Shown here: positions 14,365-40,303 of the stretch, in pieces
Layout of the letters: the number at the start of each line of letters is the position of its first letter
Numbering within the stretch: the first letter of the stretch is position 1
Assembly: GCA_021463645.1 (NCBI GenBank)
Contig: JAJTYI010000006.1
Location: 1 to 51,691, forward strand
Source: a bacterium
GTDB taxonomy: Bacteria; Patescibacteriota; Dojkabacteria; B142; OLB20
DNA length: 51,691 bases
Reading direction: 5' to 3'
Notes under the pieces: model-generated
What the model was told of the DNA's origin: nothing
What the model saw: only the letters and a program-made list of their open reading frames with translations
Database searches by the model: none
Position numbers and translations under genes: made by a program

Positions 14365-14387
14365 ATCCTGATTCGTCGGGATTTTTT
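14365..14387 (+). terminator. terminator/attenuator-like hairpin (UUCG tetraloop + U6) 13 nt before the start codon
   Basis: ATCCTGA (14365-14371) pairs with TCGGGAT (14376-14382) to give 7 bp including one G-U pair. The loop is TTCG and a T-run follows to 14387. Confidence 0.4.
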
Positions 14388-14400: not shown

Positions 14401-17400
14401 ATGTTTGAATTGGAAATTGTCGTCCCCGTTCTCAACGAAGAGAGGGCAGTGACAGAGTTAGTAAAACGTATCGACAAGGTCATGCGATCTGATAAAATCA
14501 CATACCGTATAATCTTTGTTGATGACCATTCTACAGATAGAACTGCGGAGATTATCCATTCGTTGGAAAACAGCTATCCTATACTACTTCACATAAAACA
14601 AGGTAAACCTGGCAAAGCGTACTCAATCCTTGAGGGTGCAAAACTTGCTGAGTCTGAGAAAATCGCCATGATTGATGGCGATCTACAATATCCACCCGAG
14701 GTGCTTCCACGCATGTTCAGACTTTCTGAAGTCTACGGAGTCGTTGTGGCAGATAGAAAAAAAGACCACTTGTCGTTAGTACGCAGAATTCTATCAAATC
14801 TCAATTCACAAATGATTGGTAAACATCTGCTTGGGCTGGACTGTGATTCTCAATCCGGACTTAAAGTATTCAGGAGGGAAATAATTGAACAGTTAAACAA
14901 AAAGGAGTTACAGCCCTGGGCACTTGATATGCCCTTGCTATACGCTGCGTTGAACATGCGTTATAAAATAGGAACAGTAGAGATTGATTTTGTAGATCGA
15001 GCGCATGGGAAATCCAAAGTCAATTTCATCAAAACCACATTTGAAATTATCTCCACCGCAATATCGCTTAAATTTTTCTCTTCAAAAATAGTATCTATAA
15101 AACCGAACAAAGACTCAATGCTTGGGTCAGGAGTTATTTATAAAAACAAGAAGTATATAACTCATACTACGCTTCCGCATTCCGAGTCCGCGCTATATAC
15201 GTTTACACGCACACAGAAGATAATTATTTTAGGTTTGATTGCAGGAGTATTAGCAGGATTAATACTAAACCCGCTGAATGCATTGATTGTGATTGTGGCA
15301 ATTTTGAGTTTGATCTATTTTGCAGATGTTGTTTTTGGAGCGTATGTATTGGCAAAGAGCTTACATTATCCTCCAGAATTAACATTTGATGGAGATGAAT
15401 TAAATAATTTGAAAACGAAAGACCTGCCTACCTACAGTATTCTTTGTCCACTATACAAAGAAGGTAATATATTGCCTGAATTTGTAAAATCCATCAGAAA
15501 TCTCGACTGGCCAAAGCGTAAATTAGATGTCTTAATACTACTTGAAAAAGATGATAAAGAGACTCTTGCTGCTGCAAAAAAGCTTAAACTTCCAAAGTAC
15601 ATTAGAGTTATTGTAGTTCCCGATTCACAACCCAGAACCAAACCGAAGGCTTGTAATTATGGTCTACAACTAGCGAAAGGGGAATACGTCGTAATTTTCG
15701 ATGCAGAAGACAAACCAGACCCACTTCAATTAAAGAAAGCGTATCTCGGATTCCGAAAAAGTGGGGAGAAAGTATTCTGTTTGCAGTCTAAACTTAATTA
15801 CTACAATCCAGACGATAATCTTCTGACCAGACTTTTTACAGCGGAATATTCTCTGTGGTTCGATGTTATCCTTCCTGGATTGCAATCAATCAAAACAACA
15901 ATCCCACTTGGAGGAACAAGCAATCACTTCCGGACAAAGCAATTGATTACTATGCAAGGTTGGGATCCATTTAATGTTACCGAAGATTGCGATCTCGGTG
16001 TCAGAATCTTCAAAGCAGGATATTCAACAGCAATAATCGACTCAACGACTTACGAAGAAGCAAATAGCTCTCCGAAAAATTGGGTTAGACAACGCTCCCG
16101 ATGGATTAAGGGCTATATGCAAACATATTTGGTTCATATGAGAAATCCTCTAAAATTTCTACGAGAGCACGGAATTCATGCTCTCATCTTTCAATTAATT
16201 ATAGGTATGCGAATCAGCTTTATGCTGATTAACCCTTTATTATGGTTGGCTACATTTGTCTATTTTGCATTTAGACCTTTTGTTGGGGAATACATCGAAG
16301 CACTTTATCCGTCATGGATCTTCTATATCGCAGGAATTTCACTTGTCGGTGGAAATTTTATGTACATATTTAATTATATGATTGGATGTGCGAAGAAGGA
16401 ACACTATAGTTTGATTAAGTATGTTTTCTTTATACCACTTTATTGGATTCTTGCTAGTGTAGCCGCATTCAAAGCTGCGCAACAGCTGATCTTTAAACCG
16501 CACTTCTGGGAGAAAACTCATCACGGGCTGCATCTTGCCGATACAAAGAAAAAGTCCCAACAACAGAAGACAGAGAAAGAAAGACTGTGGATACCGGGAT
16601 GGCTGGAAGGAAGACTCACAGCCAATGGCAATTTTAACCTTCACTACTCACGAGCTAAAACCTTTTTGAGAACCGGTGGTATTGGGGTCGTACTTTTGGT
16701 TGGCTCATCCGTTTTTGCTAATTTTCTGGATTTCCTGACTAGTTCTTACCTGGGCAGAAACCTCGGATCAGAAGAATTCGGGCTAATAGGTCTTATGGGA
16801 AGTTTTATGTTTATTGTTTCACTGATCTCGTCAGGAGTAAACAAAACTATTTCCCATCAAACTGCTTTCGTATTTGGTAAATATGGCTCCCCTGTCGGGA
16901 AATTATGGTATGAACACAGACCAAAAGTGTTAAAGGTTTCGTTGGTTTTCACTTTAATGTGGATACTAATAGTTCCGTTTACAGAAAACTTTTTTAACTC
17001 ACATACTCTATTTCCGTTTATTGTGTTTACTCCAGTTTGGGCTATCCTAATGCTCAGAGCCTGGGATGGTGGTTATTTAGAAGGAGGACTGAAATTTGTC
17101 TGGTTGGCAGTATTGACTTCAGTAACTGCTTCCTCAAAGCTTATATTCTCCGTAGCTTTTGTTACTTCAGGAGCGGAGCAATTAGTCTATGCAGCAGGCC
17201 CATTATCTCTATTTGTAGGTCTATGCGGAGGATGGATAGTTGCTAGAAAAGTAGCTAATCGCAACCTTAGCAGCAAAACTGCCCCTTCGAAAATAAGTAT
17301 GAAGTTTTCAAAAAGGTTCCTTGCTACTGCTACAATGACGAAGATTTCCTCAATTTCATTTCTGAGTTTGGACTTGATCTTTGTTAAACACTTCTTGTCC

Positions 17401-19158
17401 GCTTCAGAAGCGGGTCAATATGCATTGCTTGTATTGGTGGGTAGGATTATCTACATTGTGGGTGGTTTTTCCTCCCAATTTATACTGCCTGTCATAAGTA
17501 AAGAAAAAGGACAAGGTGTAAAACAAAGTAGAACATCCACATTAATAATGCTAAGTGTAATTGCGTCAACCTTGCTGGCGTTTTTCATGGTTGGTCCATT
17601 AGGGTTTTTAGTTGTCCCGCTGATGTTTGGAGAAAATGCCTTGCCGATAATCCCTTATCTAACACCGTTTGCGATGGCAATGGTACTTTTCACGGTTGCC
17701 TATAGTCTTGTAACTTATCATCAGGCTAGAAAAGAATATGCTTTTGCCTTCACAGGGATTATGACCGCTACAGTTCAGTTTGTATGTTTATTTCTTTTCC
17801 ATGCCAATATCGGTCAAGTGGTAGCTGGGATGTTTGTAAGTGGAGCGTTCTTCCTGGTAACCACCTTAGTCATGCATATACGATACGATGATATTAAACA
17901 CATCCAGTCAAATTTAACTGACTTTTGGGATTTAATAATTAGACCGAAAAAGAACTTCACTGAAATAACCGAAAATCCCAGACTGAATATTTTGATATAT
18001 AACTGGCGTGACACAAAGCATGTCTGGGCTGGCGGAGCAGAGGTATATGTACATGAATTGGCAAAGCGCTGGGTAGCAGAGGGAAATAATGTTACTATCT
18101 TTTGCGGAAATGACGACGAAAATGAGCGCCATGAAATAATTGATGGAGTAAGCGTAATTCGCAGGGGCGGATTATACACAGTGTATCTTTGGGCTGTTTT
18201 GTACTATTTGCTTAGACTTAGAGGGAAATATGATTTGATTGTTGACAGTGAAAACAGTATGCCGTTTTTTACTCCTCTATTCGCCAGAATTCCTAAAATC
18301 GGTTTAATCCATCACGTTCACAGTGACATTATCTTGAAAGAGTTGAAATTACCTATTACCCGAATCCCTGCGGCAGTTGTTGCTAAATATGTCGAAAGTA
18401 CACTAATGCCTGTTCTCTACAGAAATGTCCAAATGGTAACGGTGTCAGAGTCGAGTAAAAAAGATATGGAAAAGCTTGGTTTTGGTAAAAACAAACCAAT
18501 ACAAATTATCAACCCCGGAATTGACCTGGATGTATTGAAACCCGGTCCTAAATCAAAAGAACCCACACTTCTATATCTGGGCAGACTAAAACCATACAAA
18601 TCCATAGACACTCTAATTAAGGCGGCTGATGAATTAAGAGAAACAATTCCAAATCTGAAAGTTAAAATAGCCGGTTTTGGAGAAAGTAGAAAAGACCTGG
18701 AAAGATTAACCAAGAAGCTAGGTTTGCAAAAGTATGTAGAATTTCTTGGCAGAGTATCTGAAACCGACAAAGTGCGATTACTTGGAGAGGCCTGGGTATT
18801 TGTTCAACCATCGACATTCGAAGGCTGGGGAATCTCAGTATTGGAAGCCAATGCTTGTGGAACTCCAATTGTTGCCTCAAGAGTTCCAGGACTTATTGAT
18901 TCAGTCAAAAATCCGTCAACCGGCTATACCGTCAAGGTGAAAGACGAAAAAGCTTTTGCAAAGGCTATTGCAAAATTACTTAACGACAATGATCTGAGAG
19001 AAAAATTTTCAGACAATTCCATAAAATGGGCAGAACAATTTAACTGGGAAGTAAAATCGCAGGAATTCATGAAACTGATAGAATTTGAGATTACTGCCAA
19101 TAATTTACCTCTGATGTACTCAGAAACAATGAGCACTAATAATAATGAGATTGACTAA
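14401..19158 (+). CDS. four-module glycan assembly protein: GT2 (polyprenol-P-sugar synthase-like) + processive GT2 synthase-like + MOP/Wzx-like flippase + GT4
   Basis: Uninterrupted 1585-aa ORF with four modules.
- Module 1: VPVLNEE, FVDDHSTD and DGDLQYPPE (14674-14700).
- Module 2: DAEDKPD (from 15700), TEDCDLG and QRSRW (16090-16104), plus flanking TM helices.
- Module 3: about 12 TM helices, roughly 16650-17880.
- Module 4: a GT4 with E-x7-E (EGWGISVLEA from 18820). Confidence 0.85.
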   Translation: MFELEIVVPVLNEERAVTELVKRIDKVMRSDKITYRIIFVDDHSTDRTAEIIHSLENSYPILLHIKQGKPGKAYSILEGAKLAESEKIAMIDGDLQYPPEVLPRMFRLSEVYGVVVADRKKDHLSLVRRILSNLNSQMIGKHLLGLDCDSQSGLKVFRREIIEQLNKKELQPWALDMPLLYAALNMRYKIGTVEIDFVDRAHGKSKVNFIKTTFEIISTAISLKFFSSKIVSIKPNKDSMLGSGVIYKNKKYITHTTLPHSESALYTFTRTQKIIILGLIAGVLAGLILNPLNALIVIVAILSLIYFADVVFGAYVLAKSLHYPPELTFDGDELNNLKTKDLPTYSILCPLYKEGNILPEFVKSIRNLDWPKRKLDVLILLEKDDKETLAAAKKLKLPKYIRVIVVPDSQPRTKPKACNYGLQLAKGEYVVIFDAEDKPDPLQLKKAYLGFRKSGEKVFCLQSKLNYYNPDDNLLTRLFTAEYSLWFDVILPGLQSIKTTIPLGGTSNHFRTKQLITMQGWDPFNVTEDCDLGVRIFKAGYSTAIIDSTTYEEANSSPKNWVRQRSRWIKGYMQTYLVHMRNPLKFLREHGIHALIFQLIIGMRISFMLINPLLWLATFVYFAFRPFVGEYIEALYPSWIFYIAGISLVGGNFMYIFNYMIGCAKKEHYSLIKYVFFIPLYWILASVAAFKAAQQLIFKPHFWEKTHHGLHLADTKKKSQQQKTEKERLWIPGWLEGRLTANGNFNLHYSRAKTFLRTGGIGVVLLVGSSVFANFLDFLTSSYLGRNLGSEEFGLIGLMGSFMFIVSLISSGVNKTISHQTAFVFGKYGSPVGKLWYEHRPKVLKVSLVFTLMWILIVPFTENFFNSHTLFPFIVFTPVWAILMLRAWDGGYLEGGLKFVWLAVLTSVTASSKLIFSVAFVTSGAEQLVYAAGPLSLFVGLCGGWIVARKVANRNLSSKTAPSKISMKFSKRFLATATMTKISSISFLSLDLIFVKHFLSASEAGQYALLVLVGRIIYIVGGFSSQFILPVISKEKGQGVKQSRTSTLIMLSVIASTLLAFFMVGPLGFLVVPLMFGENALPIIPYLTPFAMAMVLFTVAYSLVTYHQARKEYAFAFTGIMTATVQFVCLFLFHANIGQVVAGMFVSGAFFLVTTLVMHIRYDDIKHIQSNLTDFWDLIIRPKKNFTEITENPRLNILIYNWRDTKHVWAGGAEVYVHELAKRWVAEGNNVTIFCGNDDENERHEIIDGVSVIRRGGLYTVYLWAVLYYLLRLRGKYDLIVDSENSMPFFTPLFARIPKIGLIHHVHSDIILKELKLPITRIPAAVVAKYVESTLMPVLYRNVQMVTVSESSKKDMEKLGFGKNKPIQIINPGIDLDVLKPGPKSKEPTLLYLGRLKPYKSIDTLIKAADELRETIPNLKVKIAGFGESRKDLERLTKKLGLQKYVEFLGRVSETDKVRLLGEAWVFVQPSTFEGWGISVLEANACGTPIVASRVPGLIDSVKNPSTGYTVKVKDEKAFAKAIAKLLNDNDLREKFSDNSIKWAEQFNWEVKSQEFMKLIEFEITANNLPLMYSETMSTNNNEID

Positions 19159-20140
19159 TTCCTCCAGTTCATCAAGATTTGAAGTCTTGTTAAACAGTTT
19201 TTTCTCTGTTTTCTCTTTACGGCGGAAAGAGCTTAATCAGATGGGTGTTCCGACGGAGGCCCCCAAAATGCTTGCCAGAGGGAGATATCAATTCACAGCA
19301 TATCTAAGTAATAAATCCTACTTCTTTAGAATAGCTGAATACAAAGATCTGGATGGAAATAAATATATCGCAAAAATCTGGACATCGAAGAACAAAGACA
19401 AAAATTATTACAGAATAAAAAACGAGTTGGTTGCTTACAGAACTTTTTGGGAAATACTACAATCAGAAGAATATAATAAGATTACAAAAGATTTCGATAT
19501 TTCCATTCCAAAACTTGAGTATTATGAAGAAGAAAAAACCAGGTTAGTTTTACTTTTGGAAAAGATTCCAGGTGTACCTCTCGGAGAAATACCGAATAAG
19601 GAAAGGATCAGAGTAGTGGATCAAAGCATCACTTTTTTGCAGACCCTATTTGAAAGCTCTGAAAACCCCACAAAACTTGGATTAAGAAATATAAAGCCAC
19701 TATTCTTTATATTAATGATCTTTTTGCTGATGCCACTTTCACTCGCAAAGAATCTGAAACTGGCACCCTCTTTACTCAAGCTGTATCTTTTTGTTCCACT
19801 GAGTGTTATCCCTATTTTAAAATGTAAAGAACTTTCCTTTGTTCATAGAGACTTGCATCCATGGAACATCATCAGTGTAAAAGAGAAATCGTATTTATTC
19901 GACCTTGAAATTATTTCAATTGGGCCCAAGAGTCACGACCTAGGGAATGCAATATTCAGGAGCTGGAACATGGAGGATAACGCAGCGTTGATTGAATATA
20001 TGAATAATTTAAAGACTAGTACCAATTATTATGAATTGAAATTTATGTGTATATATGGACTTGTCTATGATCTAGTTTTTAATGTGTCTGATACAATACC
20101 TCGGGCTAAAGGCTTTATCGAATATTTAAAATACTTTTAA
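19145..20140 (+). CDS. APH/choline-kinase-fold phosphotransferase with hydrophobic insert
   Basis: 331 aa. Lys motif YIAKIW, catalytic loop HRDLHPWN (19844-19867), metal-binding FDLE, and a hydrophobic insertion of about 45 aa (FFILMIFLLMPLSLA...). It overlaps the upstream gene by 14 nt. The start is uncertain because of internal Met codons at 33 and 42. Confidence 0.65.
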   Translation: MRLTNSSSSSRFEVLLNSFFSVFSLRRKELNQMGVPTEAPKMLARGRYQFTAYLSNKSYFFRIAEYKDLDGNKYIAKIWTSKNKDKNYYRIKNELVAYRTFWEILQSEEYNKITKDFDISIPKLEYYEEEKTRLVLLLEKIPGVPLGEIPNKERIRVVDQSITFLQTLFESSENPTKLGLRNIKPLFFILMIFLLMPLSLAKNLKLAPSLLKLYLFVPLSVIPILKCKELSFVHRDLHPWNIISVKEKSYLFDLEIISIGPKSHDLGNAIFRSWNMEDNAALIEYMNNLKTSTNYYELKFMCIYGLVYDLVFNVSDTIPRAKGFIEYLKYF

Positions 20141-20154
20141 ACTTTTTACTAATT

Positions 20155-21255
20155 TTGAGAATTATAATTTCCACCTACGATGATATTAAGAATCCGAATT
20201 ACGGCGGAGGTGGAGCTATTGCTTTGCATGAACTGGCAAAACGACTGTCAAAAAACTACGAAGTTAAAGTTATCAGCTGGAATCACTCCGGCGTCAAAAC
20301 TGAAAGTATTGACGGAGTTGAATACACGCGTATAGGATTCAGTTTCATTTCTCCTAAAATTGCGATGTTTCTGTTTCAAATGGTTTTACCTTTGTTTGCG
20401 ATATTTAAAAAGTTTGACCTCTGGATAGAAAGTTTCGCTCCGCCGTTCACTACTGCGTTCTTGCCGATGTTTACAAGGAAACCTGTTGTTGGAGTAGTTC
20501 ATATGCTGGCTGCAGAAGACATGAAACGAAAATACAAAGTAAATTTCAGTATAATCGAAAATGCCGGAATCAGAAGATATAAGTACATAGTTTCAACCCA
20601 GGAGATAGTTCGCGAAAAAATACTTGCTATAAACCCCAAATGCAACTGTGCTGTTATAAGCAACGGGATTGACAAGATTTATCCTGAAAAGTTCACAAAG
20701 AAAAATCAATTATTATTTCTAGGTCGCATTGAAGTTGATCAAAAAGGTCTTGATTTGCTGGTATCTGCTTTTAAAAAATTCAGCGAATTATCAAACAAAA
20801 AATATCAATTAGTAATTGCAGGTTCAGGACTTGATGCTGATATGCAGAATCTGCAACAACTTGTCAAAGAAGCCGGGCTGGGAAAGCAGATTGTTCTTGC
20901 TGGCAGAGTTGAGGGTGAAGCAAAAGCAGACTTGATGAAAGAGTCTGTCGCAATGGTTTTGACCTCACGGTTTGAAACATTTTCTATGGTTGCTTTGGAA
21001 TCGCTGGCTTTTGGTTTACCATTAATTACATTTGATATCGAAGGACTGAGATGGATTCCTGATAATGCTGTCAGGAAGGCGAAATCATTTGACACAGACG
21101 ACCTGGCAGAAAGAATGTTGGAAGTCTCGACCCATGGAGAGCTTAGAGAAACTATGCGAACCGAAGGTTTAAAATACGCAGAGAAATACACCTGGGACAA
21201 TATTGCTATATCTTATGAAAAACTTATTGAAACAATAACTAATGCCAAACACTAA
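20155..21255 (+). CDS. GT4 family glycosyltransferase
   Basis: 366 aa with a TTG start. N-terminal GGGGAIALHELAKRL and the E-x7-E motif FETFSMVALE. Confidence 0.85.
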   Translation: MRIIISTYDDIKNPNYGGGGAIALHELAKRLSKNYEVKVISWNHSGVKTESIDGVEYTRIGFSFISPKIAMFLFQMVLPLFAIFKKFDLWIESFAPPFTTAFLPMFTRKPVVGVVHMLAAEDMKRKYKVNFSIIENAGIRRYKYIVSTQEIVREKILAINPKCNCAVISNGIDKIYPEKFTKKNQLLFLGRIEVDQKGLDLLVSAFKKFSELSNKKYQLVIAGSGLDADMQNLQQLVKEAGLGKQIVLAGRVEGEAKADLMKESVAMVLTSRFETFSMVALESLAFGLPLITFDIEGLRWIPDNAVRKAKSFDTDDLAERMLEVSTHGELRETMRTEGLKYAEKYTWDNIAISYEKLIETITNAKH

Positions 21256-22018
21256 CCAATTAATCACAGAAATTCTTGCGAAAAAGCTGAGATGCGTCTT
21301 TATCTCTCCTCATCTTGACGATGCTATTTTATCGTGTGGAGGGCTGATGCAAGAACTTGCCCGTAAAACTGAGCTTACAGTGATAAATGTATTTACATCA
21401 GCGCATAGTGGCCCATACACTTTATCCGCGCGGAAATTCTTGCAGGCTTCGGGAGACTTCAGTAATGCAGCGGAACTTTATCAAGCTAGAATAGAAGAAG
21501 ATCAGCGAGCGTTATTGAAGCTCGGAGTGAATGTTACCAATCTCGGTTTAAAAGACGCATTGTTTAGAACAAAACCTAAAGAGAGTTTATTTGGCAAAAT
21601 TTTGCCGGAATTTAACCATGTTTATCCGACTTATAAATGGCACATTACTGGATCAGTTAACAAAAACGATCCGGCGTTGGCTGATCTACGCAAGCAGCTC
21701 GAAAAACTCAATCTGAAAGAAGCTGTAGTATTTGCTCCTTATGGAATCGGAAATCATGTCGATCATCAATTAGTAAGCGCTGTGAGCAGAAGTTTATTCA
21801 AAAAACTTGTTCTGTATTCTGATTTTCCATATAACATTCGATTAGATGATTATGGTTCTGAAAACGGTATGTACCGCAAGATAGAACTCACACCAAATCT
21901 TAAAGAAAAAATAAAATTGATTAAATTTTATCAAACTCAATTTACCGGATTGTTCTCTGACGGAGAAGTTCCGGGACATAAAGAAGTTTATTTTGTTAAA
22001 AAAGTCGATGGAAAATAA
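21242..22018 (+). CDS. PIG-L/LmbE family N-acetylglucosaminyl deacetylase
   Basis: 258 aa with the zinc-site motifs ISPHLDDAILSCGG and GNHVDHQ. It overlaps the GT4 gene by 14 nt. Confidence 0.85.
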   Translation: MPNTNQLITEILAKKLRCVFISPHLDDAILSCGGLMQELARKTELTVINVFTSAHSGPYTLSARKFLQASGDFSNAAELYQARIEEDQRALLKLGVNVTNLGLKDALFRTKPKESLFGKILPEFNHVYPTYKWHITGSVNKNDPALADLRKQLEKLNLKEAVVFAPYGIGNHVDHQLVSAVSRSLFKKLVLYSDFPYNIRLDDYGSENGMYRKIELTPNLKEKIKLIKFYQTQFTGLFSDGEVPGHKEVYFVKKVDGK

Positions 22019-22559
22019 TCTTATCAAAAAATTAGTTAATGAAATAAAACTCTTTCGAAAAGCGCCGAAAGAGTATATTTGGGTTTATACATATCCCAAA
22101 GACCAGAAGGTCGAAATCGGAGAATATAACCCGAGAGTGAAAAAACAAGGGCAAGACTTGATTGATGAGATAAAAAAGAAATTACCTGAATTGAAAATCC
22201 ACTTCTTAGGGTCAGTAGCGCTTGAAATCCCTGGACAAAAAGATATAGACATATTTATAGAATGTCTACCGAAAAACTTCCATAACGTGATTCCAGAGCT
22301 AAACAAAATAATTGGTCAGCCAGTTAAAAAGAGGGAACGATTTGTTGAATGGGTTTTCGAAAAGAATGATATTCCTGTGGAATTATTTCTGATAGATCCA
22401 ACTTGGCAGAAATTCTTGAATAAGCTTTCCAATTTCGAAACATTAAAGAAGAATAGACAGGCCTATACCGAATTTAAGATAAAAAATATTGGCAAGTCAA
22501 TGCGTGAGTACGAACGAAAAAAGTATGAATTTTTTTACACTGGATTAAATTTCAAATAA
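22008..22559 (+). CDS. Pol-beta superfamily nucleotidyltransferase (GrpB/KNTase-like)
   Basis: The motif G-S-x10-D-I-D (GSVALEIPGQKDIDIFIE) is the minimal NTase signature. An alternative TTG start lies at 21993. Confidence 0.55.
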   Translation: MENNLIKKLVNEIKLFRKAPKEYIWVYTYPKDQKVEIGEYNPRVKKQGQDLIDEIKKKLPELKIHFLGSVALEIPGQKDIDIFIECLPKNFHNVIPELNKIIGQPVKKRERFVEWVFEKNDIPVELFLIDPTWQKFLNKLSNFETLKKNRQAYTEFKIKNIGKSMREYERKKYEFFYTGLNFK

Positions 22560-22583
22560 ATATAACTGGAACTGCAAAACATT

Positions 22584-23618
22584 ATGTTTACAAAACTGCA
22601 TATCAAAACGAATAAACCTCATCCGAAGAAATCGGATTTTATCACTATACCGAGGGTTCTTTATGGTTATCTTTCTAATTTTGTTTTTAGAGAAAAAATA
22701 AACTTAAAGGAATTTCCGGCAATCCAAGGTTATGAACTGGTTAACCTCATTAGGATTCAAGGTGGTGCCGACCAAAACAGTGTTGGTATCTATCGAAATG
22801 AGGACGGCAAGAAGGTTATTATTAAAAGTTTGACCTATAAAAAGAATCTTCTTGCTGCGAGCCAACTTAGGCATGAAGGAGCGATGTTAGATTTACTACA
22901 AGAATATCAATATTCAGGTAAGCTGCAAGAGATACGATTTCCCAAGTTGTACGAAGTAATCAACAACCCCGATTCTATTTCTATCGTGATGGAATTTGTA
23001 GAAGGAAAGCCTATTGCCGAGCTTGACACGGTAACTAAACTAAAACTACTTGATGATTGTATTAACTGCTTCAAGCAAACAACACATGACTTACCGCAAG
23101 AAATGTTTTCTAAAATTCCAAAAAGGACAAAAACCTTTATGACTATTACTTTTTTTGTCTATTTATTATTTGCGCTCAAACAAAATTTAAAATTAACAGG
23201 ATTGTTGCTTAGTGTAGCTGTTCAATTTTATAAATATTCTGTAATTTCCCGTTTCCAGAAGACATCTTTTGTATTGACTCACAAAGCACTGCATGAGGAA
23301 AATGTTATTGTAAGCGGGCACTCGGCCACTATTATTGACCCTCAAACAGGAATATTAGCGGAAGAATTCTCAGAAATTGCAATTATCCCGAAGTTCTATT
23401 TGAAAGATACTGGTATAATTGAGATTAAGAAATTCTTACTGAAATTTTTGCATTCCGAAGACGAAGTAAAGAATTTTTTTAGATTATCGATTTATTATAC
23501 GATACAAACTTTGGCATTGACCGGTAAAGACTATCCGAAATACGAAGAAGCTAAAAAGTATCTGGAGATTTTAAACAGTACATTATTTAAAGATTTATTA
23601 AAGTCACTAAAGGCCTAA
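22584..23618 (+). CDS. APH-fold kinase paralog lacking the catalytic Asp (putative pseudokinase)
   Basis: 344 aa and collinear with the 19145 gene, including the same hydrophobic insert. The catalytic loop reads HKALHEEN (23280-23303), with Ala where HxD is expected. The downstream metal-binding Asp (IIDPQ) is retained. Confidence 0.55.
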   Translation: MFTKLHIKTNKPHPKKSDFITIPRVLYGYLSNFVFREKINLKEFPAIQGYELVNLIRIQGGADQNSVGIYRNEDGKKVIIKSLTYKKNLLAASQLRHEGAMLDLLQEYQYSGKLQEIRFPKLYEVINNPDSISIVMEFVEGKPIAELDTVTKLKLLDDCINCFKQTTHDLPQEMFSKIPKRTKTFMTITFFVYLLFALKQNLKLTGLLLSVAVQFYKYSVISRFQKTSFVLTHKALHEENVIVSGHSATIIDPQTGILAEEFSEIAIIPKFYLKDTGIIEIKKFLLKFLHSEDEVKNFFRLSIYYTIQTLALTGKDYPKYEEAKKYLEILNSTLFKDLLKSLKA

Positions 23619-23628
23619 AAACTTAATA

Positions 23629-25227
23629 ATGAAATTATCAAATACTACAATAAAAATTATAAACATCATGACCCAGGGCATACTGCTGATATTTGTAGTG
23701 GTGATAATGATGGGTTCAATCAGAGGGATTGCAGGGAATCCGACAGCAGAAGAACTAAACTCCCCGATCTGGAAAGAACAAGGTCCTTTCGAGTTGTCTC
23801 CCGAACGGGGTCGCTTTGCTTTGACATACTCTGTTTTGGAAGATCAATCTGTAATCTTTTCAATCCCTGTAGCTCGGTTTGTTACCCCTGATCTCGGTTA
23901 CACTGATGGAAACTTTGTCTCCCTATTCGCCCCCGGAGTATCATATCTTGTCATCCCAGGCTATCTGGTAGGTCAGTTTTTTGGTTTAGCTCAAGTCGGA
24001 ACTTACGCAGCGATCGGATTGTTTGCAATTATTAATTACCTCTTGATCAGATCAATAAGCCGTTCTTTAGGTGCGAATCCCTTGGCATCTGCAATTGGTG
24101 GGATGGTCTTTCTTTTTGCAACGCCTGCTTTTGCATATGGGGTTAGTCTTTATCAACATCACATTTCAACTTTTCTGATTCTGGCCGGAGTTTATCTGCT
24201 TATCAGATTTAAGAAAAGGTGGCTAGCCATGTTCTGTGTCTGGTTTTTATGTGCTTTGGGTATAGCAGTAGATAACCCCAATCTATTTATGATGTTCCCT
24301 TTGGGAGTCTTTGCATTGATGCAGGCCTTAAATATTGGAGAAACTGAAAAGAATCTAATTGTCAAAATTAACCCTAAATACTTTGTTGCGGTACTGGGAG
24401 TCGTTATACCTATTATGGGATTTATGTATTTCAACCATCTTTCCTACGGAAGTCCTTTCCAGCTTGGTGGTACAGTAAATAGTGTCGATGCTATTAATGA
24501 AGAAGGTCGACCAGTAACTTCTGAAGATATCCTAACACCGGAAGAACTTGCGCAAGCTGGAGAATTTGAAGAGGAAGACAGGTCGTCAGTCGGCTTCTTT
24601 GAAGCACGGGATATGGTAAACGGTCTTTACATCCATTTGCTGAGTCCGGATAGAGGAGTCTTGTATTTTACTCCGGTGATTCTTATAGGAGTGGTTGGGA
24701 TGTTTGTTTTGTATAAATCCAAAAATAAACATCTACCGCTATTGCTGAGTATTGTCGGTGTGAACCTTGTACTTTATTCTATGTGGGGTGACCCATGGGG
24801 AGGCTGGGCATTCGGGTCAAGGTATTTGATACCAAGTTATGCCATTATGTCGATATTCATTGCAATGGCATTAACCAGATATTCCAGAAATATTCTATTC
24901 TTGCTCGTTTTTGCTGTACTTTTTGTCTATTCAACTGCAATAAACACACTAGGAGCTATCACTACCAGTGCAATACCTCCCAAAGTACAAGCTATTCCGC
25001 TTGAAGCATTGACGGGAAAAGAAGAAAAATACAACTACAAAAGAAGCTGGGACTTCTTAAACAATAATGGCTCTAAATCATATTTCTACCAGGAATTTCT
25101 GAAAGATAGTGTTCCAGCAAAAGATTTTTATATCACTCTTGTGTCAGCGATATCCACAGTATCAATGATGACATTAATCGGAGTCTATTTAACAAAAAGA
25201 AAAACTAAAGATGAAAATAAAGATTGA
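23629..25227 (+). CDS. polytopic membrane protein, GT-C-like putative glycosyltransferase
   Basis: 532 aa with about 12 TM helices. The first extracytoplasmic loop carries acidic residues (ELSPERG, LEDQ), followed by a long loop and a C-terminal TM. It sits in an operon with the glycan genes. Confidence 0.45.
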   Translation: MKLSNTTIKIINIMTQGILLIFVVVIMMGSIRGIAGNPTAEELNSPIWKEQGPFELSPERGRFALTYSVLEDQSVIFSIPVARFVTPDLGYTDGNFVSLFAPGVSYLVIPGYLVGQFFGLAQVGTYAAIGLFAIINYLLIRSISRSLGANPLASAIGGMVFLFATPAFAYGVSLYQHHISTFLILAGVYLLIRFKKRWLAMFCVWFLCALGIAVDNPNLFMMFPLGVFALMQALNIGETEKNLIVKINPKYFVAVLGVVIPIMGFMYFNHLSYGSPFQLGGTVNSVDAINEEGRPVTSEDILTPEELAQAGEFEEEDRSSVGFFEARDMVNGLYIHLLSPDRGVLYFTPVILIGVVGMFVLYKSKNKHLPLLLSIVGVNLVLYSMWGDPWGGWAFGSRYLIPSYAIMSIFIAMALTRYSRNILFLLVFAVLFVYSTAINTLGAITTSAIPPKVQAIPLEALTGKEEKYNYKRSWDFLNNNGSKSYFYQEFLKDSVPAKDFYITLVSAISTVSMMTLIGVYLTKRKTKDENKD

Positions 25228-26815
25228 AAAAGCAAAAATTAACAATTTAACTCGTTTCCTAGAGAAGTACGCGCTAACGTTAATTGTATTAACTCTGATT
25301 CTAGTAGCAACTGCTACTTGGTATGGGTTCTATCAAAATGGATTAGGGCTCGCATACAACGACGCTCGCTCACATCTAAACATCGGTAGACGTGTGGTTG
25401 AAGGTTTGAAACCAGGCTTAGCACAGATTGGATCTGTTTGGTTACCTTTGCCTCATTTACTGATGGTACCTACCATCTGGAATGACTTCTTCTGGCATTC
25501 AGGACTCTCTGGAGCAATTCAATCTATGGGATCATTTGTCATTACGGGTGTTCTTGTTTACTTATATCTGAAAAAACTAGGAGCCTCAATATTTGCACGA
25601 TTCTTTGGTGTAGCATTATTTGCTCTAAATTTAAATGTATTGTATCTGCAATCTACCGCAATGACCGAGCTTCTTTTGATTGCTACCATGACTGCTGGTT
25701 CGTATTACTTGTTGTTGTGGGCGCAAAAGGAAAATATAGTTGATCTCTTAAAGTGTTCTCTATTTATAATGCTTTCCACTCTAATCCGCTATGATGGCTG
25801 GTTCTTGATTTTCATAGCTACTTTGATTGTGGCATTCCAAATATTTCGCAAGAAAGGCTACAAAGCGACAGAAGGAATGTCAATCATGTTTATGTCTCTT
25901 GGTGGTCTGGGTATTGCGCTTTGGGTGTTATGGAACTTATTAATTTTCGGAGATCCGTTATTTTTTGCTTTTGGTCCATTTTCAGCACATTCTCAGCAGG
26001 AACAGTTATTAGCAGCAGGGAATCTCCCTACAAAGGGCGATATACTACTCTCAATCAAAATGTATCTATATGCCCTATTTTTCAATTCTTATACATTACC
26101 GGCGATTCTAGGGCTATTTGGAGGTATAAGTCTATGGTTTAACAAGAAAATTAATATAAATGCTCGAATTGCCACCCTGGCTTTGATTGCTCCATTTATT
26201 TTCAACATTTTAGCACTTTACCTTGGTCACTCAGTTTTGTTTATTCAAGGGATTTCCGGAGATACTTGGTTCAATGTCCGCTATGGAGTCATGCTTGCCC
26301 CTTCTATTGCCATTTTCGTGGCATATTTAACTGATAAAGTGAAACCAATGAGATTCGTTATAGTGGGTCTTTCTTTGCTGGTTCTGACATTTGCTTTTCT
26401 AAACCAAGATGCTGTAACAATTGATGATGCACGAGTTGGCTCTAGTCAGAAAAATGTTTCCGAAGTATCCGACTGGCTAGCTGATAATGCAGGAGACAAA
26501 GAAGGCTTTATTCTAATTTCTGCTGCCTCTCATGATGCTATAATCTTTTCGTCAGGAATGGATATGAGTAGATTTATCCATGAAGGAACAGGACTTTACT
26601 GGGATACTGCTCTCGGGAACCCTGACCATTGGGCTAGATGGATAGTAATGAGAACCCATGACGAAAATGATTTAGTATTCAGAGAAATCAACAAAGAAGC
26701 ATGGGAAGATCATTACACACTTGTAGATCATTATCCTTTTGCAGATATCTACGAACTAAAACCAGATTCAATGACTAATTTAAACACAGAACCTGTTCTT
26801 AAGAATGTGAAATAA
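25211..26815 (+). CDS. GT-C fold (ArnT/PMT-like) membrane glycosyltransferase, putative
   Basis: 534 aa. It has 11-13 TM helices, a first-loop YNDARSH motif and a soluble C-terminal domain of about 130 aa. It overlaps the upstream gene by 17 nt. Confidence 0.5.
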   Translation: MKIKIEKAKINNLTRFLEKYALTLIVLTLILVATATWYGFYQNGLGLAYNDARSHLNIGRRVVEGLKPGLAQIGSVWLPLPHLLMVPTIWNDFFWHSGLSGAIQSMGSFVITGVLVYLYLKKLGASIFARFFGVALFALNLNVLYLQSTAMTELLLIATMTAGSYYLLLWAQKENIVDLLKCSLFIMLSTLIRYDGWFLIFIATLIVAFQIFRKKGYKATEGMSIMFMSLGGLGIALWVLWNLLIFGDPLFFAFGPFSAHSQQEQLLAAGNLPTKGDILLSIKMYLYALFFNSYTLPAILGLFGGISLWFNKKININARIATLALIAPFIFNILALYLGHSVLFIQGISGDTWFNVRYGVMLAPSIAIFVAYLTDKVKPMRFVIVGLSLLVLTFAFLNQDAVTIDDARVGSSQKNVSEVSDWLADNAGDKEGFILISAASHDAIIFSSGMDMSRFIHEGTGLYWDTALGNPDHWARWIVMRTHDENDLVFREINKEAWEDHYTLVDHYPFADIYELKPDSMTNLNTEPVLKNVK

Positions 26816-27826
26816 ATGATGGATTTTATTGAAAAGCTAAGAAGACTTAGCCTCAAACAAATTATATCTGGGCTTTTAATAGCAAGTTTAATTTCTTTAC
26901 TAGTTTATCTCTACATTTCATCGGTGCAAGGTCCAAATAAACCAGCTAATCTCTGGGAAGTTCAATCTATTGACACTATGAAATTTTCCAGAGACTTAGC
27001 TAGAGAAAAACTACTCGATAATACATTTGATGATGAGATTGATCATCAAGTTCGAAATATCAAAGAAATGGGTGCAACTCACGTCGCAGTTGGAACACCT
27101 TATGATGAAGAATTTGTACCCTATATTTCAAGATGGGTGAATATTGCACGAAAACATCGACTAAAAGTATGGTTTCGTGGGAACTTCTCTGGGTGGGAAC
27201 AATGGTTTGACTACGAGGAGATAACTCCAGAAAAACATCAGGAGCTAATTGAAACATTCATTATTAATAATCCACAACTTTTCCAGGATGGAGACATTTT
27301 CTCACCATGTACTGAATGTGAAAATGGAGTATTGGGAGACCCGAGACTCACTGGTAATGTCAATGACTATAAAATATTCTTAGTCGAAGAATATGATATA
27401 GCCAATACCGCATTCGATAGAATTGAAAAAGACGTTACAGTAAATTTCCCAATGAACGGAGATGTCGCAGAATTAATTATGGACAAACGGATGACTCAAA
27501 ATCTGGGAGGAGTAGTCGTCGTGGATCATTACGTCGAAAGACCGGAACAATTAGCAGAAGACGTAAGACATTATGCAAAATTAAGCGGGGGCAAAGTAAT
27601 CCTAGGCGAAATAGGTGTTTATATTCCTGGAATCCATCCCCAAATGAATGATTTCGAACAGGCAGACTGGCTTGAACAAGCTTTAACCCTGCTTGCAGAA
27701 GAGGAAGACCTTGCAGGTATTAATTATTGGGTATTTAGCGATGGTACAACACAACTATGGGAAAAAGATACTCGTGTGAAAAGGAAAGCAGCTGATGTTC
27801 TACAAAATTTCTATAAACCCAAGTAG
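26816..27826 (+). CDS. membrane-anchored protein, possible clan GH-A-like (TIM barrel) glycoside hydrolase
   Basis: 336 aa. N-terminal TM, a candidate acid/base ECENG and a candidate nucleophile LGEIG. The start codon abuts the upstream stop. Confidence 0.3.
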   Translation: MMDFIEKLRRLSLKQIISGLLIASLISLLVYLYISSVQGPNKPANLWEVQSIDTMKFSRDLAREKLLDNTFDDEIDHQVRNIKEMGATHVAVGTPYDEEFVPYISRWVNIARKHRLKVWFRGNFSGWEQWFDYEEITPEKHQELIETFIINNPQLFQDGDIFSPCTECENGVLGDPRLTGNVNDYKIFLVEEYDIANTAFDRIEKDVTVNFPMNGDVAELIMDKRMTQNLGGVVVVDHYVERPEQLAEDVRHYAKLSGGKVILGEIGVYIPGIHPQMNDFEQADWLEQALTLLAEEEDLAGINYWVFSDGTTQLWEKDTRVKRKAADVLQNFYKPK

Positions 27827-27907
27827 GGAGACATTTTTGGCAAAATTTGATAAAATCATGCACTAGGTAAAGGAATTACTATATTAGTACATATTTTTTA
27901 AAGCATT

Positions 27908-28975
27908 ATGAAAATAATAATTTTCGCTGGAGGGCATGGTACTCGATTATGGCCACTCAGTCGTAAAAACTCCCCTAAACAATTCGAGAAAATGTTTAAC
28001 GGTAAATCTACTCTACAATTGATGGTAGATAGGGTTAAACCCGTTGTTGGCATTGAGAACGTATATATCTCAACCGGTAGCGCTTTCAAAGAAATTATTG
28101 AAAGTCAGCTCACGGAACTTCCCAGGGAAAATATCATCTACGAACCAGCAAAAAGAGATCTCGCCGCTGCAGTTGGTCTTGCTTTTCTAACATTAAAACA
28201 AAAAGGTGTGAACGAGCCTGTAGCAATATTATGGTCTGATCATCTGGTTGAAAATCTATCTGAATTTCAAAATGCATTAAGAACAGGTGAGCAACTTATC
28301 AATGAAAATCCAAACAGATTTATCTTTAACGGAGAAATACCTAGATTTGCAAATAATAATTTAGGTTGGATTAGTATCGGAGACACAATTGAAAATAAAA
28401 ATGGATTTGATGTCCATAGTTTTGAAGGTTGGATTTACAGACCTGATGTCGAATTATGCAATCAATTATTCGAATCAAAAAGAGCAGTCTGGAACACTGG
28501 ATATTTTGTTACTTCCGTCGATTTTGTAACAGGCTTGTATGAACAGCATATGCCTGAAATGTATTCTCAACTTCAACAAGTAGTTTCCAGCCCTGAACTT
28601 TTGGATTCTATCTACCCGACAATTGAATCTATACATTTTGACGAAGCAATAGTACAAAAATCACGTCCCGATCAAGCTGTCGTATTGACTTTTGACATAG
28701 GATGGAGTGATCCTGGAACACTTTACGCCCTTAAAGAGGCCATAGTAGCTAATAAGAACGATAATTATATCCATGGTAAAGCAGTATCACTGGCTACTTC
28801 AGATTCTATGATCTTTAATCAACAACAGAATAAATTAGTCGCAACTATCGGACTAGACGGATTTGTAGTAGTAAATACAGAAGATGCTGTTTTCGTATGT
28901 CACAAGGACAATATTAGAGAGATAACACAGTTATTAAAACAAATTGAAGCAGAAGGATACTCGGAGTACCTATAA
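27908..28975 (+). CDS. manC: mannose-1-phosphate guanylyltransferase-like sugar nucleotidyltransferase
   Basis: 355 aa with N-terminal IIIFAGGHGTRLWPLSRKNSPKQF, typical of ManC/CpsB. Confidence 0.8.
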   Translation: MKIIIFAGGHGTRLWPLSRKNSPKQFEKMFNGKSTLQLMVDRVKPVVGIENVYISTGSAFKEIIESQLTELPRENIIYEPAKRDLAAAVGLAFLTLKQKGVNEPVAILWSDHLVENLSEFQNALRTGEQLINENPNRFIFNGEIPRFANNNLGWISIGDTIENKNGFDVHSFEGWIYRPDVELCNQLFESKRAVWNTGYFVTSVDFVTGLYEQHMPEMYSQLQQVVSSPELLDSIYPTIESIHFDEAIVQKSRPDQAVVLTFDIGWSDPGTLYALKEAIVANKNDNYIHGKAVSLATSDSMIFNQQQNKLVATIGLDGFVVVNTEDAVFVCHKDNIREITQLLKQIEAEGYSEYL

Positions 28976-29024
28976 TTGTATACAATAAATAGAGGACATC
29001 TTTCTTATCTATTAGGAACTTTAA

Positions 29025-30305
29025 TTGGCCCAGAAAGCAATCCGTGAGTACTACGGAAAAAAATTGATTTTTCAGTATCTGCCAGAATTCTTAACCAGCT
29101 TCAGTCAAGGCTATAAAGGGGTAGAAATTGATTCTAAACAGTTAAATCAAATTAATAAACTTCCAAATTTCAAATATGGTTATGTTGCAAAGCCAGACGA
29201 GCTTTTTGGCAAGAGAGGAAAGAACAATCTCGTATTTATTAATACTGATCAGAAAAAAGTATTAAACTGGATAAAATCAAAATCATCAGTAAAAACCGTT
29301 ATCAAACAAAATGAAAAAGAACTCTCTGGGAGTTTAAGAAGATTTATTTTAGAACCTTTCATCCCTCACGACGAAGAATATTACTTAGCTATTAAAACTG
29401 AAAGATTAGTAGATAAATTATATTTTTCCACCTCAGGAGGCGTAGAGGTTGAAGATAATTGGGAGAAAGTTACCGGTATAGATATCCCATTTAGCCTTGA
29501 TAACTCACCTATTCACTCCTACGTTTCGAATACGATTGGCAAACTCATCAAAGATAAACAAGAAAGCACTCTATTAGCTGATTTCGTTTCTGCAATTTAC
29601 CAGGTTTTTAAATTACTGGATTTTTCATATCTTGAGATTAATCCTTTTGTAATTAATGATGGAGAGATCCATTTACTTGATTTTGTTGCCAGAATGGATA
29701 ACACAGCAGTATACAAAAACAGAAAACTATATGAAGTAATAGGGGAACCAGAATTCGCTCCACCATTTGGTAGTGAAATGCCAGAATCAGAAACTAAAAT
29801 TATTGAGATGGACGAAAGCTCTGGCGCATCTTTGAAATATAAGCTAATAAATCCAGATGGGAAAATTTGGCTTCTAACTTCCGGAGGAGGAGGAAGCGTG
29901 ATTTTTGCAGATACGGTTGGAGATTTGGGCTATCATTCAGAAATTGCAAATTACACTGATTATAGTGGAAACCCCAATACAGATGAAACTCAGGAGTTTT
30001 GTGAAATTATATTCTCCGATATGTTTAAAAGTAATAGAAAAGATAAAGTGTTAATTGTCGGAGGGGGAATAGCCAATTTTACAGATATTGCAAAAACGTT
30101 CACGGGGGTAGCTAGAGCAATAGAAAAACATCATAAACAATTCAATCAGCAGAAAATCAGAATTTTCGTACGTAGGGGAGGACCAAATTATAAAAGAGGG
30201 CTTGAATTCATGAAAAGTATGGCTGAAAAATATAATATAGAGATAACAGTACATGGTCCCGAGATGTATATGACAGAGGTGGTCAGATTGGCACTAGAAA
30301 CTTAA
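29025..30305 (+). CDS. aclB: ATP-citrate lyase, ATP-grasp/citrate-binding subunit (AclB type)
   Basis: 426 aa. TTG start with an AGGA sequence 8 nt upstream. It is collinear with the N-terminal part of eukaryotic ACLY as I recall it. Matching blocks are VAKPDELFGKRGK, FILEPFIPH, YLEINPF, SGASLKYKLINPDGKIWLLTSGGGGSV, IANYTDYSGNP, GGGIANFTD and IFVRRGGPNY. Confidence 0.9.
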   Translation: MAQKAIREYYGKKLIFQYLPEFLTSFSQGYKGVEIDSKQLNQINKLPNFKYGYVAKPDELFGKRGKNNLVFINTDQKKVLNWIKSKSSVKTVIKQNEKELSGSLRRFILEPFIPHDEEYYLAIKTERLVDKLYFSTSGGVEVEDNWEKVTGIDIPFSLDNSPIHSYVSNTIGKLIKDKQESTLLADFVSAIYQVFKLLDFSYLEINPFVINDGEIHLLDFVARMDNTAVYKNRKLYEVIGEPEFAPPFGSEMPESETKIIEMDESSGASLKYKLINPDGKIWLLTSGGGGSVIFADTVGDLGYHSEIANYTDYSGNPNTDETQEFCEIIFSDMFKSNRKDKVLIVGGGIANFTDIAKTFTGVARAIEKHHKQFNQQKIRIFVRRGGPNYKRGLEFMKSMAEKYNIEITVHGPEMYMTEVVRLALET

Positions 30306-30315
30306 ATTTATAAAT

Positions 30316-32133: not shown

Positions 32134-32178
32134 TTGGTGTTGAGTATAATTATTTCAATTAATCATTAACCTTACAGG

Positions 32179-36367: not shown

Positions 36368-36378
36368 TAACCATCCAT

Positions 36379-40294: not shown

Positions 40295-40303
40295 TATTTT
40301 TCA

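Follow-up and report, generated by a model that had tools for sequence, protein, structure and literature searches.

In the biosynthesis of teicoplanin and A40926, the deacetylases Orf2* and Dbv21 act in a sequence in which GlcNAc is first deacetylated and then N-acylated. De-N-acylation of a polyprenyl-phosphate-linked aminosugar prior to its transfer by a GT-C enzyme is an established theme as well, known from the Arn and the Francisella Flm/NaxD pathways, and the three-component GtrA/GtrB/GT-C concept of extracytoplasmic glycosylation is reportedly the subject of a review. Here, we analysed a gene pair encoding a GT4-family glycosyltransferase (GT) and a PIG-L/LmbE-type N-deacetylase on a 51,691-nt stretch of bacterial DNA (contig JAJTYI010000006.1; the whole stretch is referred to as the window). 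We lean towards the view that the pair forms an optional, serotype-like tailoring cassette that makes glucosamine (GlcN) on a lipid-linked glycan, within an envelope-glycoconjugate locus (14401-27826, + strand) that recurs class-wide.

Orf2* and Dbv21 are the best solved relatives of the window deacetylase (2e-5 and 2e-9, respectively), with which they have an SPHLDDA motif in common. Their logic, whereby a GT installs GlcNAc that is then processed by a deacetylase and an acyltransferase, is mirrored in related loci, where PIG-L is neighboured by or fused to Acetyltransf_6. However, Orf2* and Dbv21 work on a glycopeptide aglycone from a non-ribosomal peptide synthetase cluster, whereas the window holds a membrane glycan locus; their partner is a GT1 rather than a GT4 enzyme, and no acyltransferase is encoded beside the window PIG-L. 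The GtrA/GtrB/GT-C systems (CsbB/GtcA/YfhO, GacI/GacL, ArnC/ArnEF/ArnT) likewise combine a polyprenyl-phosphate-sugar synthase of the GT2 family with PMT_2/ArnT-type GT-Cs and a GtrA-family protein. In the present locus, though, this GT2 makes up one of the four parts of a 1585-aa fusion protein, the GT-Cs always come in tandem and are sometimes fused, and they are accompanied by a hydrolase-like partner and a hypervariable cassette of GT and tailoring genes.

Further parallels exist to protein glycosylation. The Agl system of Haloferax volcanii comprises AglD (GT2), AglR (a MOP flippase) and two GT-C enzymes, AglS and AglB (PMC3871713), and the Pgf system of Streptococcus mutans, consisting of PgfS (GT-A), PgfM1/M2 (two GT-C enzymes) and PgfE, targets sortase-anchored adhesins (PMC12041528). 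This inventory is matched here by a DPMS-like GT2, a predicted MOP-type flippase, two GT-Cs, and soluble GT2 and GT4 enzymes in a variable cluster. Yet, the locus lacks a canonical oligosaccharyltransferase signature, the GT-Cs of its relatives are fused to polysaccharide-type domains, and the acceptor protein is only putative.

Lastly, the GT4, PIG-L, DPMS-like GT2 and GT-C superfamilies are common to the locus and to the pathways for glycosylphosphatidylinositol (GPI; PIG-A/PIG-L/PIG-M,V,B), for phosphatidylinositol mannosides and lipomannan (PIM/LM; PimA/PimE/Mpt, Ppm1) and for low-molecular-weight thiols (MshA/B, BshA/B). A first reading of the window, hereafter the original prediction, had taken the pair for the core of such a pathway, and the enzyme set for one that follows the logic of a GlcN-containing glycolipid anchor. 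The superfamilies on which it drew are all present (GT4, an intact PIG-L, a DPMS-like GT2, ManC and two GT-Cs), but pathway-specific subfamily assignments failed throughout, the GT4 and PIG-L genes proved optional, and the scanned window open reading frames (ORFs) include no inositol-phosphate synthase, CDP-alcohol phosphatidyltransferase or cysteine ligase.

A conserved frame with a hypervariable centre

ORFs were called in 86 fetched loci and matched to the window proteins or domains by phmmer. The 5' to 3' order was the same in almost all of them: a giant GT made of two GT2 domains (GT2a, GT2b), a block of ~12 transmembrane (TM) segments and a GT4 domain, sometimes split in two; a stretch of variable content; two polytopic proteins, TM1 and TM2; and an exported protein of ~410 aa (P410). 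This frame was complete in 50 loci, in which the region from the giant GT to TM1 measured between 858 and 7657 bp (median 4.8 kb).

PIG-L was present in the variable region of only 16 of these 50 loci, while the remaining 34 kept the GT-C pair without it. Directly upstream of PIG-L, an orthologue of the window GT4 was found in 14 of the 16 loci, versus a GT4 orthologue in six of the 34 loci devoid of PIG-L (Fisher p=3.5e-6, to be taken as indicative). In one locus (L027), the giant GT and the GT-C pair lie too close together to accommodate a gene; elsewhere, the slot was occupied by a pyruvyl transferase, for which CsaB was the best match, albeit below threshold, by other GT2 or GT4 genes, or by kinase-like genes. 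Acetyltransf_6 was encoded in eight of the 50 loci, seven of which also carry PIG-L, and the two form one polypeptide in L055 and L073. Besides, identity to the closest genome (L007) was mosaic, amounting to 90% for TM2, 85% for the GT4, 82% for PIG-L, 61% for TM1 and 36% for an APH-family kinase, and this genome carries Acetyltransf_6 and a GT4 in place of two window genes, those for a GrpB-family and a second kinase-like protein. The restricted occurrence of PIG-L, the empty slot of L027 and the mosaic identity to L007 argue for a recombining tailoring cassette rather than the pathway core that had been proposed, with the pair sitting in the hypervariable centre of the locus. The same variability contradicts the notion that a glycolipid anchor accounts for the gene set better than a repeat unit of the O-antigen type does, since cassettes vary in this manner in O-antigen, capsule and Agl-type loci. 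The association between TM1 subtype and the presence of PIG-L (12/29 versus 4/21 loci) was too weak to be used. L007 additionally encodes a Cof-type HAD sugar-phosphatase (4577-5425 of that locus) between the GT4 and PIG-L, which scored 218 bits against the sugar-phosphatase model (cutoff 273) and 206 bits against the Cof subfamily (cutoff 137); this gene order recalls that of MshA, phosphatase and MshB.

A scan of a genome collection with the TM2 alignment retrieved TM2 relatives from 273 GTDB species genomes, the named groups being Woese-, Levy-, Shapiro-, Ames-, Curtiss-, Gottesman-, Chisholm- and Daviesbacteria. The 85 related loci all apparently belong to Microgenomates, of the candidate phyla radiation (CPR), and homologues of TM1, TM2 and PIG-L stem overwhelmingly from Patescibacteria/Microgenomates metagenome bins; we take the window itself to stem from a CPR bacterium of the Microgenomates type. 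Many related contigs bear labels such as 'uncultured Gammaproteobacteria' or 'Bathyarchaeia', and the near-identical (99-100%) proteins P0003 and P0121 are labelled as deriving from a 'Niabella sp.' metagenome-assembled genome; all these labels give the impression that CPR contigs were mis-binned or labelled automatically.

Downstream of the frame, most loci encode a LAxTG protein (59/86) and a sortase (55/86). The former is a secreted protein of ~190 aa that consists of a Cys-rich domain (FPxCxNPQG...QCFC...WWK), a Ser/Thr/Gly-rich linker, the LAxTG motif, a TM helix and a basic tail; in L003 it is encoded at 14535-15161 and followed by the sortase gene. It may serve as a glycosylation target or as a wall anchor for the glycan. 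At the corresponding position, the window and L007 contain neither gene. P410 was also considered as the sortase substrate and rejected, as no sorting motif was seen at the end of the P410 sequences examined and the substrate is the separate LAxTG protein. Within the literature searched, on Microgenomates/CPR glycosyltransferases and sortase and on LA_3751/LA_3752, we found no description of the locus, and a preprint on CPR pili had no bearing on it; a class-wide locus with such unusual fusions and a GT-C pair thus seems not to have been characterised before.

The GT4 and the deacetylase

The GT4 gene (20155-21255, +; 366 aa, TTG start) overlaps that of the deacetylase (21242-22018, +; 258 aa) by 14 nt, in line with the original prediction, whose ORFs are all present exactly where it had placed them. 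The deacetylase, a zinc-dependent enzyme of the PIG-L/LmbE family (Pfam PF02585, 56.0 bits; cutoff 28.2), carries a PHLDD motif at aa 23-27 and an HVDH motif at aa 172-175. Across 116 family members, H24, D26, D27, H172, D174 and H175 are conserved to 98-100%, with H24, D26, D27 and H175 reaching 100%. H24 and D27 align to His16 and Asp19 of Orf2*, and HVDH aligns to the HPDH of Orf2* and Dbv21. The His-x-x-Asp and distal His zinc ligands and the adjacent catalytic Asp are all there, so that the claim of an intact zinc site withstood the alignment without loss of a catalytic residue and, judged by its sequence, the deacetylase is predicted to be catalytically intact. Hydropathy analysis indicated neither a TM segment nor a signal peptide, which points to a soluble enzyme and hence to deacetylation in the cytoplasm.

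The GT4 is of a generic subfamily (Glycos_transf_1, 97 bits). It reached no NCBIfam equivalog cutoff (MshA, 45.1 of 462.5 bits; BshA, 53.1 of 273.7; GlcNAc-PG synthase, 37 of 480), yielded no PIGA domain match in Pfam at E<=0.01, and resembled PimA (3e-7) solely in the C-terminal domain and no better than it resembled glycogen synthase (GlgA). A match to the NCBIfam model of Agl16 was sub-threshold (6.8e-21). The deacetylase, in turn, scored 17.1 of 182.5 bits against BshB1 and did not match MshB (NCBIfam). Hence, the GT4 could not be placed with the PimA, PigA, MshA or BshA type, nor the deacetylase with the thiol type, as the original prediction had envisaged. It is reasonable to infer a GlcN-containing product from the pair. 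As a combination of enzymes, the pair is ordinary; what is new is its context.

The GT-C pair and the exported hydrolase-like protein

TM1 (23629-25227, +; 532 aa) and TM2 (25211-26815, +; 534 aa, with a C-terminal soluble domain) had no Pfam match and no sequence match in the PDB, even at E<=10. Alignment-based AlphaFold2 models reached a pLDDT of 87.5 and a pTM of 0.90 for TM1, and 75.6 and 0.78, respectively, for TM2. When searched with Foldseek, the TM1 model matched ArnT (2.8e-5), Pmt4, AglB, EmbC, STT3, AftB and ALG3/9, and the TM2 model DPY19 (2.6e-6), STT3 (~5e-6), PglB (1e-4), AglB, ALG9 and ArnT (TM-score 0.50); the TM-scores of the two proteins with ArnT were 0.45-0.50. These GT-C matches had a Foldseek probability of 1.00 for both proteins, versus at most 0.2 for any non-GT-C match. 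The models thus identify TM1 and TM2 as GT-C-fold enzymes, as had been predicted, rather than as Wzy/WaaL-type proteins, which excludes an O-antigen polymerase or ligase.

As to the GT-C family, the pair groups in the PMT_2/ArnT/OST-like part of the superfamily (OST, oligosaccharyltransferase) and not with the GPI mannosyltransferases or PimE, so that a PigM/PimE type was not recovered. PimE (9dm5) ranked 23rd for TM1 (E=0.08) and was not among the TM2 matches listed. Neither window protein had a Pfam match that would place it in GT50, GT76 or GT22, and among 31 TM1 relatives one matched GT22 (Alg9/PIG-B type) and three weakly matched the DolP-Man mannosyltransferase family PF15971. Pfam matches in 45 distant TM2 relatives comprised PMT_2 (22), GH5 cellulase (eight), CarboxypepD_reg (three), and GH113, GtrA and PIG-V (one each). 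TM2 gave no match to the oligosaccharyltransferase profile STT3 in Pfam, and it has no conserved WWDxG motif, as the family consensus does not retain the Asp of its 'YWD'.

In TM1, residues E55, S57, P58, R60, G61 and D88 are invariant and lie between predicted TM segments 1 and 2; in TM2, an invariant YNDARSH loop contains D51, just after helix 7-43. The conserved acidic loop residues (E55 and D88 of TM1, D51 of TM2) are putative catalytic residues. A polyprenyl-phosphate-linked donor for both enzymes is suggested by the co-encoded DPMS/ArnC/GtrB-like domain. TM1 is the faster-evolving member of the pair, with TM2 being very highly conserved (60-70% identity across the class).

Searching 1.84 billion representatives with a profile returned 2654 TM2 relatives. 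Among the best 150 of these, TM1 and TM2 were joined in a single protein (P0362), GT2b was fused to TM2 in seven proteins (P0453, P0475, P0483, P0484, P0505, P0507, P0510), GT2a, GT2b and TM2 formed one polypeptide (P0408), so that GT2b is joined to a TM2-like GT-C in at least eight relatives, and TM2 was linked to a P410-like, hydrolase-like domain in four cases (P0371, P0384, P0407, P0485). Given these fusions, GT2b, TM1/TM2 and the hydrolase-like protein almost certainly act on one substrate. TM1 is furthermore fused to a GT4 in P0060 and to GT2a in L043.

Directly behind TM2, the window encodes P336 (26816-27826, +), a membrane-anchored exported protein with an N-terminal TM segment. It is a short form of P410, the ~410-aa protein found downstream of TM2 in relatives, and aligns by eye to the N-terminal 330 aa of the P410 proteins of L003, L005, L012 and L046. 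P336, P410 and the LAxTG protein had no Pfam match, and NCBIfam names neither P410 nor Acetyltransf_6. P336 is probably a glycoside hydrolase of the clan-A type.

The giant fusion protein and sugar supply

The GT2a domain (aa 1-240 of the giant protein; 14401-15120, +; Pfam Glycos_transf_2) matched DPMS of Pyrococcus (5mlz, 1e-18), ArnC (9e-15) and GtrB (1.7e-12) in the PDB and, below cutoff, PgfS (1e-20) and ArnC (1e-19) in NCBIfam. At the family level, GT2a is of the polyprenyl-phosphate-sugar-synthase type (DPMS, 1e-18), its sugar specificity not being readable from the sequence. GT2b (aa 321-720; 15361-16560, +), in contrast, is a membrane-embedded, synthase-type GT2 with the motifs DAED (DxD), TED and QRSRW (QxxRW), as read from the translation. 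It matched Glyco_trans_2_3 (2.3e-23) and Glyco_tranf_2_3 (4.5e-23) in Pfam and, below cutoff, PgaC/IcaA (7.6e-28) and CelA (5.7e-20) in NCBIfam; a faint similarity to GT21 (lipid glucosyltransferase) was also seen. By hydropathy, the adjoining segment (aa 741-1170; 16621-17910, +) holds ~10-12 TM helices. Nine of 21 orthologous segments matched MOP families (Polysacc_synt in six, best 3.9e-11; Polysacc_synt_3 in two; MatE in one), with PF01943 listed for that of L003, and by orthology we predict this block to be a MOP/Wzx-type flippase domain. The C-terminal GT4 domain (17971-19158, +) matched Glycos_transf_1 (7.9e-47) and Glyco_transf_4 (1.7e-18).

A mannose-1-phosphate guanylyltransferase of the ManC type is encoded at 27908-28975 (+; Pfam NTP_transferase plus ManC beta-helix). 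It matched GMP_PMI in NCBIfam (9.8e-59) below cutoff because only the N-terminal half is present. The polyprenol-phosphate-sugar-synthase-like GT2 upstream of the pair and manC downstream of it, both noted in the original prediction, are therefore confirmed as members of the same gene block. A small membrane protein of the GtrA/DPMS-TM family (35816-36367, +; Pfam GtrA_DPMS_TM, 2.3e-14), encoded 9 kb downstream, is a possible flippase partner for a polyprenyl-phosphate sugar. Neither Wzy polymerase nor initiating phosphoglycosyltransferase families were found among the scanned window ORFs, which argues against a classical Wzx/Wzy locus.

Kinase-like and GrpB genes next to the pair

Three further genes, missing from the original prediction's listing of the block, flank the pair. 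The first, just upstream of the GT4, encodes an APH-family kinase-like protein (19145-20140, +; Pfam APH, 5.8e-7, 29.9 bits, cutoff 23.2) with an intact catalytic loop (HRDLHPWN); many relatives have a homologue directly after the giant GT. The other two separate PIG-L from the first GT-C: a GrpB-family protein of the nucleotidyltransferase fold (21993-22559, +; 5.1e-7, 30.4 bits, cutoff 25.5) with a GS...DID motif read from the translation, and a second kinase-like protein (22584-23618, +; weak Pkinase and ABC1 matches). APH and GrpB are fused in L015. In a comparison of the catalytic loop with 30 relatives, the second kinase-like protein reads HKALHEEN where nearly all homologues have HxDLxxxN; with its catalytic Asp lost, it is probably a pseudokinase in the window lineage. 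In L082, TM1 carries a homologue of it as an N-terminal fusion.

Proposed function and alternatives

Based on these data, we propose the following scheme. On the cytoplasmic face, the GT4 would extend a lipid-linked glycan intermediate by an N-acetylhexosamine residue (probably GlcNAc), from which the soluble PIG-L would strip the N-acetyl group, leaving a free amine (GlcN). In many relatives, this amine may be re-acylated by Acetyltransf_6, at times fused to PIG-L; in the window, the APH-type kinase and the GrpB protein are found instead and may phosphorylate or nucleotidylate the glycan. The intermediate would then be flipped across the membrane and, outside, be extended or transferred by the two GT-Cs using the polyprenyl-phosphate sugar from GT2a, for which mannose, supplied via ManC, is the obvious candidate. 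The exported hydrolase-like protein would finally process the product. While gene identities, folds, catalytic residues, synteny, variability and fusions were read from the data, the donor sugar, the acceptor and the order of steps in this scheme are conjectural.

Several observations weigh against an optional GlcN-tailoring cassette. The donor and acceptor of the GT4 are not readable from its sequence, and no initiating phosphoglycosyltransferase of the MraY/WecA or WbaP type was found among the scanned window ORFs. The window itself is devoid of the Acetyltransf_6 on which the re-acylation logic rests, and its copy of the flippase block had no Pfam match and retrieved nothing in a profile search of the PDB. 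In addition, the absence of PIG-L is known per locus only, and the same genome may encode a PIG-L elsewhere; the loci retained were the 80 nearest to the query; and as the loci are phylogenetically related, frequencies and the Fisher p are only indicative.

The final glycoconjugate could be a wall polymer, a lipoglycan or the glycan of a glycoprotein. The fusions to GH5/GH113 and synthase domains favour a polysaccharide product, whereas the LAxTG protein, the sortase and the Agl/Pgf parallels keep protein glycosylation alive. More speculatively, and with far less conviction than for the cassette itself, one may regard the frame as an undescribed envelope-glycoconjugate machine of this CPR class, in which GT2b, the Wzx-like flippase and the two GT-Cs would act as one complex together with the glycoside-hydrolase-like exported protein and, in most relatives, the LAxTG protein and sortase. 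Such a machine would assemble the principal surface glycan of Microgenomates or attach it, with swappable cassettes giving rise to serotype-like diversity. If so, Agl/Pgf-like glycosylation of a sortase-anchored surface protein would be one possibility, and cassette-driven surface diversity would be relevant to host attachment and phage recognition. Like other CPR bacteria, Microgenomates have not been cultured; their genomes are tiny, a life attached to other cells is assumed for them, and next to nothing is known of the chemistry of their surface. With its occurrence in 273 or more genomes at species level, its very strongly conserved edges and its hypervariable middle, the locus is a leading candidate for the group's main surface glycan and for its strain-level diversity. 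Reading the pair as an optional amino-sugar cassette also shifts the focus to glycan serotyping and to the GT-C/synthase complex, away from GPI-like anchors and low-molecular-weight thiols.

Among the alternatives, the one that survives best, albeit as an unlikely one, is protein glycosylation resembling the Agl and Pgf systems. Here, the cassette would set the structure of a lipid-linked glycan, which one GT-C transfers onto surface proteins while the other adds single sugars taken from a polyprenyl-phosphate sugar, the LAxTG sortase substrate being the candidate acceptor. The parts parallel Haloferax AglD/AglR/AglS/AglB and S. mutans PgfS/PgfM1/M2/PgfE, the best structural matches of TM2 are protein-modifying GT-Cs (DPY19, STT3, PglB, AglB), and the LAxTG protein and sortase genes lie downstream in more than half of the 86 loci. 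Both, however, are missing here in the window and in L007, and TM2 has no STT3 Pfam match and a 'YWD' that is not conserved as WWDxG. Moreover, TM2 relatives are repeatedly fused to GH5/GH113 hydrolase domains and to synthase-type GT2 domains, which points to a polysaccharide substrate.

Less probable still is a GPI- or PIM/LM-like anchor, with GT4 and PIG-L catalysing the first two committed steps on a membrane lipid and the GT-Cs mannosylating it outside from polyprenyl-phosphate-mannose. The fact that ManC and two GT-Cs occur together with a GT4, an intact PIG-L and a DPMS-like GT2 domain speaks for it, as do the GT22 match in one and the DolP-Man mannosyltransferase matches in three of the 31 TM1 relatives, and the PIG-V match in one of the 45 TM2 relatives. 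The faint GT21 similarity of GT2b, too, makes a lipid anchor for the whole locus conceivable, and its end product could still be a lipid-anchored glycan. Yet, 34 of the 50 complete loci have the same GT-C pair and lack the GT4/PIG-L pair, and the slot of L027 is empty. The GT4 has no PIGA domain, scores far below cutoff against MshA (45/462 bits) and GlcNAc-PG synthase (37/480 bits) and matches PimA only C-terminally, PimE comes 23rd for TM1 (E=0.08), and the window ORFs scanned include neither an inositol-phosphate synthase nor a CDP-alcohol phosphatidyltransferase.

We would rank lower again, as improbable, a route akin to ArnC/ArnD/ArnT or FlmF2/NaxD/FlmK, in which GT2a makes polyprenyl-phosphate-GlcNAc, PIG-L deacetylates it and a GT-C moves a single GlcN onto an envelope acceptor, thereby adding positive charge. 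While the similarity of GT2a to ArnC (9e-15), that of both GT-Cs to ArnT (TM-scores 0.45-0.50) and the nearby GtrA-like gene fit such a route, PIG-L co-varies with a separate GT4 and not with GT2a, which belongs to the frame regardless of PIG-L. Besides, PIG-L is often fused or adjacent to an acyltransferase, which would undo the charge modification.

The least probable reading, for which we see very little room, is a soluble small molecule of the mycothiol/bacillithiol, compatible-solute or aminoglycoside kind, with the GT4 acting on a small phosphorylated acceptor, followed by a phosphatase (in relatives), PIG-L and an acyl- or aminoacyl-transferase: the L007 gene row (GT4, Cof-type HAD sugar-phosphatase, PIG-L, Acetyltransf_6) does mirror the mycothiol order of MshA, MshA2, MshB and ligase/acyltransferase, and similarity to aminoglycoside-modifying enzymes is seen in the APH-type kinase and the nucleotidyltransferase-fold protein, but the cassette is always enclosed by a membrane-glycan frame, with the giant GT on one side and the GT-C pair on the other, the scores for BshB1 (17/182.5 bits), BshA (53/274) and MshA (45/462) are low, the scanned window ORFs include no cysteine ligase, and the window has neither the phosphatase nor the acyltransferase. 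Aminoglycoside-type secondary metabolism was rejected, the cassette always being inside this frame.

Other features of the window

Genes are densely packed on the + strand from 14401 to 33177, with gaps of -26 to +24 nt from the giant gene to P336. For the genes around the pair, including those for the two kinase-like proteins and GrpB, homologues at E<1e-40 number in the hundreds to thousands, so that none is a chance ORF. Hairpins with T-runs, resembling terminators, at 14365-14382 and 33484-33499 (+) flank the 19-kb + strand block that extends from the giant GT to an epimerase, the latter hairpin being GC-rich and convincing. Promoter- and terminator-like sites in the window were no more frequent than in shuffled sequences, and the operon boundaries are therefore only suggested.

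The window is largely a glycan island. A second sugar region (34747-49605) encodes a GT4, the GtrA-like protein, a 737-aa double GT4 (minus strand), two GT2 enzymes, RmlA-, RmlB-, RmlC- and RmlD-like proteins of the dTDP-rhamnose pathway, a NUDIX protein and a hexapeptide acyltransferase, and a UDP-glucose dehydrogenase gene is located at 50469-51626 (-). A gene of the beta-keto acid cleavage enzyme (BKACE) family (49585-50433, -; 1.3e-84) adjoins these sugar genes. Directly after ManC, the window encodes a two-subunit ATP-citrate lyase (29025-32133, +) with Citrate_bind, ATP-grasp, CoA-ligase and citrate-synthase domains; among the 86 loci it was found in the window and L007 only, and it is unexpected in a small CPR genome.

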